Positions 57,001-60,000 of a stretch of DNA of 64,000 nt are shown here, one piece after another. A program made the position numbers. This stretch comes from Escherichia coli (lineage in GTDB: Bacteria; Pseudomonadota; Gammaproteobacteria; Enterobacterales; Enterobacteriaceae), in NCBI RefSeq assembly GCF_030013205.1, contig NZ_CP122648.1. One strand, 5' to 3'. Positions within the stretch are counted from its first letter, which is position 1; each line of letters opens with the position of its first letter.

Positions 57001-60000
57001 CAATATGACTGATACTATTCAAATGGTAAGGTAGAGCCTTGGGGAGGATTCTATGATGCAAACAATCAATTGCAAATGGACACGAATCAGCCTGGACATG
57101 AGTTTACATTCAAGCGAAGGAAACCATAGGTATGAGGTATTTTCTCTTTATATTTATAACAATCCCCCTTATCTCTGGAGGTCATATGAGTAATGATAGC
57201 GAAAAGATAATATCAACATATTCGCTCAATTTTTTATCACCAGATGATGTGAGGAAAGAAGAACTTAAGGCATCACAAGGTGATAGTGATGCTGCATTTA
57301 AATTGTACAAATATTACCTTTTTTGCGAGCCAAAATCATACAGAAAACAGCACGAATGGTTAATAATATCGGCAAATAATGGAAATGCTATAGCTCAATA
57401 TAACTTATCAAGAGAACTTGAGTCAGAAGGAAAAGTAGATGAATCAATACAATGGCTGAAAAAATCAGCGGAACATGGTAATAATTATGCACAATATCAG
57501 ATGTCAAAATATTTATTAAAAATAGGTGATATTAGAGGATCGGAATATTATCTAAACTTATCTGCGGATAACGGATGTGTATTTGCAATAAAAGATATTA
57601 TCAAAAATATGATGGATAGTGGAAGGTACGATGACGCCCTCATTTGGGTTGAAAAATTGAAAAAATTGTATCCTGACACAAATACCGAACTTTACATACA
57701 AAAAATAACGCAGAAAAAAAGCAATCCAAATAATAATTATATATAATTACTCGCACAGAGTTACAGTATTGCAAGAAATATATCTAGCATATAAAGTCGC
57801 CGCCAGTAAAGATAAAGTACTGTGTAATCCTTCCTCCCATATAGGGGTAAAAACTTAGCATCCAGTGCCCTCGACTTAATTTTTAGTATTTTCTCTGTGA
57901 AGTGACACTTCGTAGGATTCAGTTCATGTTTACCAGAAAAAAGGTGGTCATTCTGGTGGTCTTGATAATCTCGATTTTTTGTTTTAGCTTTCCAATCAGC
58001 CAATTAATGGCTACGGCGATCCCAGTCAGAGGAGCCAAATTTTAGTTTTGAGACATCTCTATGAGTCTCAAGACAGTTAAAAAATAAAAATTATTTTTAC
58101 CCGGTTACCTTGTAAAAAAGTGACCGGGTTTTTTGATTTCTGTGTTTCGTGCGCTTAATCGAGTCTCACGCTTCAGTGAGCAAATTGCCCCCCAACAGAC
58201 ATCACGATTCGCAAGGTCAAAAACTTCGTTCTGTGAAGTACCGTACAAAGGTATAGAGAAAAATACCTTATGCTGGATGTCGCTGTCGCGTTTTTATCGG
58301 GAAACTATGCGTAATTGCCACTTTGCCTTCTGTAATCAGAAAAAGAAGAACTGGAATTTTAATAAATATTATTTCTCTGGGAATGGGGATTTTTTATAAT
58401 CAATATGACGAGTTGAACATTATATTTTTATAATGATTATATGAGATTAAAGAAATCTGCCATAAAGACAGATTTCTTTAAAATATAATTAGAGATTTGC
58501 GACGTTATGATAAACTTTTTGTACATCGTCGTCATCTTCAAGGGCATCAACAAGCCCTTCAAAGATTTCTAAATCTTCTGGGGAAAGCTCAACTTCAGAT
58601 TGAGCAATCATTTCTAATTCTGTTGTTGAGAACTCAGTGATTCCAGCTGCTTTTAGAGCCGCGATTCCTTTATGAAGGTCAGTAGGTTCAGTATAAATAA
58701 CAATATTACCTTCTTCTTCAGTTACATCACGAACATCAACTTCAGCTTCAAGTAAAATTTCAAAAATATGGTCAGGGTCTGTTCCTTTAAATACAATCAC
58801 ACCCGTATTGTCAAACATATAGCTGACAGAACCTGCCGCTCCGATATTGCCGCCTTTTTTATTGAAAATTGTGCGAACGTTAGCAATCGTACGGTTAACA
58901 TTGGAAGTCAAGGTCTCAGCGATAATCATTGAGCCATTAGGACCAAAGCCTTCATAACGGCCCTGCACGAACGTTTCATCTCCGCCGCCTTTGGCTTTAT
59001 CAATTGCTTTATCAATAACATGCTTTGGAACTTGTGCCTGCTTTGCTCGTTCAATAACGAATTTTAAAGATGTGTTTAATTCTGGATCGGGTTCACCTTG
59101 TTTGGCAGCGGCATAGATTTCTACACCGAATTTTGCATAAATTTTAGACGTCGCACCGTCTTTAGCCGTTTTTTTAGCAACAATATTGGCCCATTTACGT
59201 CCCACTGGAATGATCTCCTCGAAAATTTATTTACATTACTGGTAAATCGTTAACATGTGTTAATTCGGCATATTATATCATAACAGGAAAAATCTCGTCT
59301 ATTAGAAATAAAAATATTCTAAAGTCATAATCTTATATTTAATTTCATAAAAAATTATATTGTTGGCGGGATTTTTTATAATTGTGTTTTGAAAGCATAC
59401 TTGCTTTTAATATGTGGGAATTATTAAGACGATAATAAAACTCGCATCTGTCCAAGAAAGCAAACAGCCCGCGTTTATTGCAGGCTATTTGCCAGATGTC
59501 TTACTTACTCCTTCACATCTATTTCTGATAAGAAGGTTCAGAACTTATTATCGGAACGGCGGCTCATTAAAGGTTCGTAATTTACGTGAATGCAGTCGGT
59601 CGCCTTCTGCGCGCAGCAAATCGATCGCCCGAATGCCAATTTGCAGGTGTTCGGAAATAGCGCCTTCATAAAAACGGTTAGCCTGACCGGGAAGTTTAAT
59701 CTCACCATGTAATGGTTTATCTGAAACACACAGTAGTGTCCCGTATGGCACGCGGAAACGATATCCTTGCGCGGCAATGGTTGCACTTTCCATATCAATT
59801 GCTACGGCCCGGCTTAAGTTAAAACGAAGTGCAGAAGCTGAGTAACGTAATTCCCAGTTCCTGTCATCTGTGGTTACCACAGTACCAGTACGTAGCCGCT
59901 GTTTGACTTCCTCACCGGGCCTGCCGCTGACTAACTTGGTGGCGTCATAAAGCGCACGTTGCACTTCAGCAATACTCGGAATAGGAATATCGGGCGGCAG

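Follow-up and report, generated by a model that had tools for sequence, protein, structure and literature searches.

Rhs element core proteins and the Rhs polymorphic toxins delivered by type VI secretion systems (T6SS) are the closest described counterparts of a gene that we examined in the window, which is a stretch of 64,000 nucleotides (nt) of Escherichia coli DNA (assembly GCF_030013205.1, contig NZ_CP122648.1) whose full length supplies all coordinates given here. The product of this gene resembles those proteins in that both RHS_core and the Rhs-associated core domain score above their curated cut-offs, and in that the motif PxxxxDPxGL is followed by an AT-rich variable tip and then by an adjacent candidate immunity gene. 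It differs from them in that the tip of the window's allele is interrupted by a nonsense codon and its shell lacks 24 codons, and it differs from T6SS Rhs toxins in that no vgrG or other T6SS gene lies adjacent in the window. The evidence presented below leads us to conclude, with a probability of roughly 0.88, that this TGA codon is a derived nonsense mutation within the Rhs toxin domain of a pig-associated E. coli lineage, where the toxin gene is undergoing pseudogenisation with a presumed loss of function and the immunity gene is kept.

The tip domain can likewise be set against three described groups of proteins. Tox-Caspase has been described in general terms as a caspase-fold terminal toxin of polymorphic toxins that giant proteins also contain in tandem arrays (Zhang et al., 2012; PMC3482391). 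The tip is similar to it in its predicted caspase-like alpha/beta fold, in the order of its His and Cys residues (His then Cys), and in its placement at the C-terminal end of Rhs proteins and of other polymorphic toxins. Multi-copy giants are a further likeness, as our profile search gave proteins of 3000-6800 amino acids (aa) with five to seven copies; in P0010-P0016 (3100-6800 aa) five to seven caspase-fold copies stand in tandem, resembling the arrays of Zhang et al. (2012). However, the partners described for Tox-Caspase are Imm36 and Imm57 (PMC3482391), whereas the present family is accompanied by Sel1-like proteins or, in another branch, by zinc-ribbon proteins. The second group comprises the Peptidase C80 domains of V. 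cholerae MARTX (RtxA) and C. difficile TcdA/TcdB. These span 200-250 residues rather than the approximately 140 of the tip, share only 8-15% identity with it, and serve as self-processing modules of host-directed toxins that are activated by inositol hexakisphosphate (InsP6), whereas the tip is a terminal payload with a candidate immunity protein. The third group consists of P. aeruginosa Tce1 and Tce2 (PA0256 and PA2372), recently described DUF4347 putative cysteine-protease effectors of the T6SS that are reported not to be markedly toxic to E. coli and are apparently directed at eukaryotes, with Tce2 being toxic to yeast (PMC13323088). Tce1 and Tce2 are cargo loaded on Hcp without an immunity gene (PMC13323088), whereas the tip domain is borne by an Rhs protein and paired with a candidate immunity gene, which suggests a bacterial target.

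The features of the locus on which the argument turns are the following.

53020..57012, plus strand: the Rhs gene as now read, in which the TGA follows 1330 codons; the full-length form of the gene has 1393 codons.

56476..56709, plus strand: the Rhs-associated core domain (TIGR03696, residues 1153-1230), which ends in PxxxxDPxGL at the core/tip boundary.

56710..57009, plus strand: the part of the toxin domain that continues to be translated (its first 100 codons), with the putative catalytic His-Gly at 56803-56808 and Cys at 56923-56925.

57010..57012, plus strand: the nonsense codon TGA, which a G-to-A substitution at 57012 has created from the TGG that encodes Trp-101 of the tip.

57013..57129, plus strand: the final 38 codons of the toxin domain, now cut off by the TGA, and behind them the ancestral TAG (57127-57129); these codons show protein-level conservation and encode modelled strands.

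57132..57746 (or from 57186 in the Prokaryotic Genome Annotation Pipeline, PGAP), plus strand: the Sel1/TPR-like immunity gene candidate, annotated as a tetratricopeptide/sel1 repeat protein.

The protein scores 2484 bits against the NCBIfam model RHS_core (NF041261; cut-off 2000), where it is matched in two stretches because of the 24-residue deletion, and the core has a G+C content of 59.5%, compared with 37% for the tip. We take the N-terminus to be a close match to that of RhsA from E. coli K-12.

Translation of the window past the TGA yields YYSNGKVEPWGGFYDANNQLQMDTNQPGHEFTFKRRKP, a run of 38 codons in the same frame that is closed by the TAG at 57127-57129, and the ATG that begins a 204-codon Sel1-like open reading frame (ORF; 57132..57746) lies 2 nt beyond this TAG. 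An earlier note on this DNA had reported the TGA, the 38-codon frame and the TAG at coordinates that all hold in the window sequence, and had proposed that the TGA may be a premature stop that removes about 38 residues from the tip. The open frame by itself is suggestive but weak evidence for such an event, since its meaning comes from homology; judged by the composition of the AT-rich tip alone, 38 codons would be free of stops with a probability of ~0.04.

The decisive comparison is with other E. coli genomes. The tip plus the immunity gene is present in 91 of 5426 complete E. coli genomes, as one copy each and on the chromosome every time. When alleles were counted by exact match to a 61-base probe centred on the stop site, the TGG form was found in 72 of these 91 genomes and the TGA form in 18, with the remaining one differing from both. 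An alignment of the window with strain N3 reveals a single difference within the tip, where position 57012 is A in the window and G in N3, corresponding to TGA versus TGG. The Rhs coding sequence (CDS) of N3 is annotated with 1393 codons and terminates exactly at the TAG, and the CDS of the TGG allele is annotated through to the TAG in nearly all genomes listed. All 18 TGA genomes come from pig or wild boar, and several are named as enterotoxigenic E. coli (ETEC) or O139:H1. The seven TGA loci that were fetched originate from Korea, Denmark, Japan, the Netherlands, Belgium and France.

These counts also bear on whether the TGA could have entered this single record through faulty assembly or sequencing. 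Such an error is conceivable because several genes are called frameshifted in the near-identical record K_EC180, which shows that the K_EC180 assembly is not flawless. However, the change is a base substitution rather than a homopolymer indel, the identical 61-mer occurs in 18 complete genomes, including those fetched from six countries, and the TGA is nested consistently with other lesions described below. A substitution common to this many independent complete assemblies is not a sequencing error, and the chance that this one is an artefact is negligible.

Comparison with more distant proteins reveals that the sequence after the TGA is conserved coding sequence of the same domain. The seven distant tip homologues found first (30-47% identity) all extend through the stop position and carry Trp there in seven of seven cases, with W101, G129 and F134 being invariant across the eight sequences. 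Wider homologues of the tip (25-49% identity) likewise continue past the stop position. An exhaustive profile search with the tip gave 3577 cluster representatives at E <= 0.001, and in an alignment of 78 domain sequences the residues His32, Gly33, Cys72 and Gly75 are invariant. Within the tail, Trp101 is present in 73 of the 78 sequences, Gly106 in 76, Gly129 in 77 and Phe134 in 76. Thus, when homologous tips are searched for a sense codon at this position, as the earlier note had suggested, one is found both in the TGG alleles and in the Trp codons of distant relatives, and its proposal of a premature stop is borne out by these alleles and by the conserved tails of the homologues.

The profile search also locates the natural end of the family. 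The match ends 0-4 residues from the protein's own end in 66 of 77 single-domain proteins, which indicates that the natural C-terminus corresponds to the TAG site rather than to the TGA. Among the 77 single-domain members examined, not one terminates at the TGA position or close to it, and the shorter family matches among the matches listed still have residues beyond them. A word-indexed protein search with the tip produced nine matches, as full-length Rhs proteins cluster by their cores.

The other possibility raised by the earlier note, that the TGA is the genuine stop, does not fare well against these data; the TGA would then be ancestral and the next 114 nt a non-coding spacer free of stops by chance. 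A 38-codon open stretch with a probability of about 0.04 is not impossible, and the PGAP CDS does end at the TGA in TGA strains. However, homologues run past this position and the downstream sequence is conserved at the protein level: 72 of the 91 genomes carry TGG and keep the frame open as far as the TAG, the tail residues W, G, G and F are near-invariant in homologues of 25-49% identity, the C-terminus of the family falls at the TAG, and the tail is modelled confidently within the domain. We therefore give essentially no weight to a genuine stop.

To assess what the stop removes, we relied on an AlphaFold2 model of the full 139-residue tip built from a 49-sequence alignment, which has a mean predicted local distance difference test (pLDDT) score of 97.7 and scores of about 95-98 in the tail. 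The tail is modelled with beta-strands at residues 99-102, 108-115, 121-128 and 131-134. Termination at the TGA eliminates 39 residues (Trp plus the following 38), or 28% of the domain, and with them the last three beta-strands, most of a fourth, and four near-invariant residues (W101, G106, G129 and F134). The putative catalytic His and Cys lie upstream of the stop and are retained. Judging from the model, the 100-residue fragment most likely cannot fold or act, and a loss of toxin function is suggested by the lost strands, the lost near-invariant residues and the later lesions taken together.

It might be argued instead that the truncated 100-residue tip is still an active toxin, perhaps with an altered activity, and that the shortened allele is under selection, given that the invariant His-Gly and Cys survive and that the immunity gene is retained. 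The absence of any natural family member of this length among the 77 examined speaks against this proposal, as do the extent of the missing structure and the shell deletion and IS1 insertions that descendants of the allele have gained. Moreover, decayed toxin loci commonly keep immunity alone. We consider an active truncated toxin to be very unlikely.

The history of the locus can be read from eight fetched E. coli loci, in which two further changes are located in the window as follows.

54007..54020, plus strand: the junction (between 54013 and 54014) of a 72-bp in-frame deletion that removes 24 codons of the YD-repeat shell, as defined by alignment with N3.

57714..57720, plus strand: a run of seven A nucleotides (eight at intact loci), where the loss of 1 nt converts KQSK at the C-terminus of the immunity protein into SNPNNNYI.

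The loci fall into a nested series of states.

TGA only, with the 72-bp segment and A8 intact: CFSAN018748 and EC556.

TGA, 72-bp deletion, and A8 to A7: the window and K_EC180.

TGA, 72-bp deletion, A7, and IS1 at 56653-56660: W13-16 and ETEC1701.

The IS1 state with the upstream Rhs sequence replaced by unrelated DNA: ETEC6333.

By the hit lists, and with a part of the genomes inspected one by one, the 18 TGA genomes divide into about 4, 9 and 5 over the first three levels. The nonsense mutation is the sole lesion common to all 18 genomes, and therefore it came first. The deleted 72-bp segment is flanked by a 7-bp direct repeat (AGATGCG), which suggests that the deletion arose by slippage or by a microhomology-mediated event. 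The loss from the A-run is probably real rather than a homopolymer error, because it travels with the 72-bp deletion in every locus inspected. In W13-16 (an O139:H1 strain), ETEC1701 and ETEC6333 (loci L004, L007 and L008), IS1 sits exactly where core and tip join and is accompanied by an 8-bp duplication of its target. The DNA upstream of IS1 in ETEC6333 is unrelated and prophage-like, which points to a rearrangement mediated by IS1. The right end of the window (63634-64000) also matches a portion of this IS1, with 100% identity over 367 bases and in an orientation inverted relative to the copy in the sister strains. Taken as a series, the later lesions would fit relaxed selection on the toxin.

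A leaky or recoded stop, read by tRNA-Trp or as selenocysteine, would act as a dimmer rather than an off switch by permitting small amounts of full-length toxin to be made. Of the three stop codons, UGA is the leakiest in E. coli, and misreading by tRNA-Trp would restore the ancestral Trp; in addition, the four TGA-only strains have no other lesion in the gene. However, the base after the TGA is T, which creates a strong termination context in E. coli, and the loss of 24 shell residues and the gain of IS1 in descendants argue for relaxed selection on the toxin. Background misreading of UGA is probably very low, and would be relevant only in TGA-only strains. A role for selenocysteine lacks a rationale because homologues have Trp at this position and not Cys. 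No match to an Rfam recoding element was found at E <= 1, the RNA structure downstream of the TGA is not unusual (folding z-score of -0.75), and the UGA is confined to one lineage. Programmed recoding, whether by a hairpin resembling a selenocysteine insertion sequence (SECIS) element or by regulated read-through, was rejected on these grounds, and we regard any leaky or recoded stop as highly improbable.

The candidate immunity gene is retained in the TGA lineage, where its ORF is still open and the last four residues alone are replaced. Its start codon deserves attention because the earlier note had placed the end of the toxin frame 2 nt before the immunity gene, which holds for a start at ATG 57132 but not for the start annotated by PGAP. 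The PGAP start (ATG 57186) is preceded by GGAGG at 57177-57181, and ATG 57132 is preceded by AAGGA at 57117-57121. Use of the upstream start adds 18 residues (MRYFLFIFITIPLISGGH) that create a hydrophobic N-terminus resembling a signal peptide. At locus L009, where a distant toxin homologue is separated from its neighbour by a gap of 0 nt, the downstream gene is homologous to the ORF of the window (E value of 8e-10) and the hydrophobic N-termini align. The Sel1-like partners at two further loci start with leaders, which are a signal peptide at L013 and, at L016, a lipoprotein leader with LAGC as its end; one other partner (L014/L015) has no leader. The alignment with the distant immunity homologue and the leaders of the Sel1-like partners favour 57132, and thus the immunity gene probably starts there, with the annotated start being 54 nt too late, and its product may be exported. 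A word-indexed search with the immunity protein retrieved near-identical E. coli sequences only, which does not settle the start codon.

If 57132 is the start, then TAG-GT-ATG would be the native tight junction between the two genes. The earlier note regarded such an arrangement as typical of toxin/immunity pairs, and distant homologous loci indeed show gaps of 0, 10, 19 and 14 nt. The premature TGA ends translation 119 nt ahead of ATG 57132, and with the stop so far upstream any translational coupling to the immunity gene is presumably lost.

By analogy with characterised Rhs effectors, the intact tip of this putative PAAR-Rhs polymorphic toxin would be enclosed in the YD-repeat shell, freed by autoproteolysis and delivered to neighbouring cells, and the Sel1-repeat immunity protein encoded 2 nt downstream would protect siblings. 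A G-to-A change would then have turned TGG (Trp) into TGA and become fixed in the pig-associated lineage, leaving a truncated domain that keeps its His and Cys but that most likely can neither fold nor function. The shell would next have lost 72 bp and the immunity gene 1 nt at its 3′ end, and IS1 would then have inserted at the core/tip junction. The essentially intact state of the immunity gene would be expected if protection from neighbours with the intact toxin is still useful.

Several observations weigh against this account of a decaying toxin gene. RefSeq/PGAP annotates the shortened CDS as an ordinary protein and does not flag it as a pseudogene. Residual or altered activity of the truncated protein is possible given that His and Cys survive, and trace amounts of full-length toxin made by tRNA-Trp misreading are possible in strains that lack the other lesions. 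In addition, the 72-bp deletion and the A-run change each occurred once and on the same branch, such that ‘progressive decay’ rests on few events. Despite these points, we favour the nonsense mutation and subsequent decay at the probability stated above. The phenomenon is ordinary lineage-specific gene decay and involves no new mechanism.

The 139-residue tip has no significant match in Pfam or NCBIfam, and a tip profile compared with PDB sequences gave no real match (one chance match at 0.11). Its classification is therefore derived from fold comparison, where the closest structures to the caspase-like alpha/beta fold of the model are the MARTX/TcdA protease domains and P. aeruginosa Tce1. 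The segments IITIGTHG and VRLLSC hold the His-Gly and the Cys, and are preceded in the model by strands at residues 26-30 and 66-70. This order of His-Gly before Cys, with a hydrophobic strand ahead of each, is a signature of clan CD. From the predicted structure, the intact tip is a small domain resembling caspase-fold (clan CD) cysteine proteases, with a putative His-Gly...Cys dyad. When 49 family members were compared with Pfam at E <= 0.1, Peptidase_C80 was matched by nine and DUF4347 by seven. No significant match to either is made by the query, and the best values among the 49 members are 1.9e-3 for Peptidase_C80 and 7e-4 for DUF4347. On the strength of the model, the tip is a fold-level relative of C80 and DUF4347 proteins that lies outside those Pfam families.

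Carriers of the tip family include Rhs and other polymorphic-toxin scaffolds, with at least 3577 cluster representatives, and the distant homologue loci L013 and L014 adjoin vgrG/PAAR genes. We propose only tentatively, and with more doubt than confidence, that intact tips constitute an experimentally uncharacterised and very widespread family of ~140-residue caspase-fold cysteine-protease toxins. In the branch to which E. coli belongs, most Sel1-like immunity proteins have a signal or lipoprotein leader, and this would imply that the protease acts on a target in the bacterial cell envelope. The leaders were considered as a guide to the toxin's site of action and rejected for this purpose, because the L014 partner is leaderless and a second branch of the toxin family has leaderless partners as well. 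In that branch (L019 5451-5813 and L020 1715-2068), the candidate immunity proteins are different and have a CxxC...CxxC zinc ribbon, which is N-terminal, and a conserved C-terminal PxFP[HY] end, with no confident Pfam match.

The surroundings of the locus offer a few further observations. The Rhs locus lies in a small island (about 47480-52500) beside a tRNA-Asn gene, with a tyrosine integrase gene that is frameshifted (about 47719-48980) and, upstream of Rhs on the minus strand, two small genes, one of the helix-turn-helix type and one hypothetical. A scan of 56600-58000 for promoters and terminators gave sites no more numerous than in shuffled sequence. Several genes nearby, namely shiA (about 61100-62420), a pdu 4Fe-4S gene (about 23150-24500) and yoeB (about 12000-12255), appear as split or carry a frameshift flag in the record of the near-identical K_EC180, and compared with N3, shiA lacks 1 nt at about 62186. 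The lineage may be losing genes more generally, or the assemblies may contain homopolymer errors.

For annotation, our findings mean that the Rhs gene of this locus should be corrected to a nonsense-truncated, decaying toxin gene beside a retained immunity gene. The locus is a textbook case of a lineage that drops its weapon and keeps its shield, with the order of the lesions still readable across sister genomes. If intact tips do form a protease-toxin family of the kind proposed above, the TGA allele of the pig lineage would offer a loss-of-function control, made by nature, with which to define what the conserved C-terminal beta-strands do. The toxin family is more notable than the stop itself, as evident by its lack of a Pfam-A or NCBIfam match, its thousands of relatives, and its two unrelated kinds of immunity partner.

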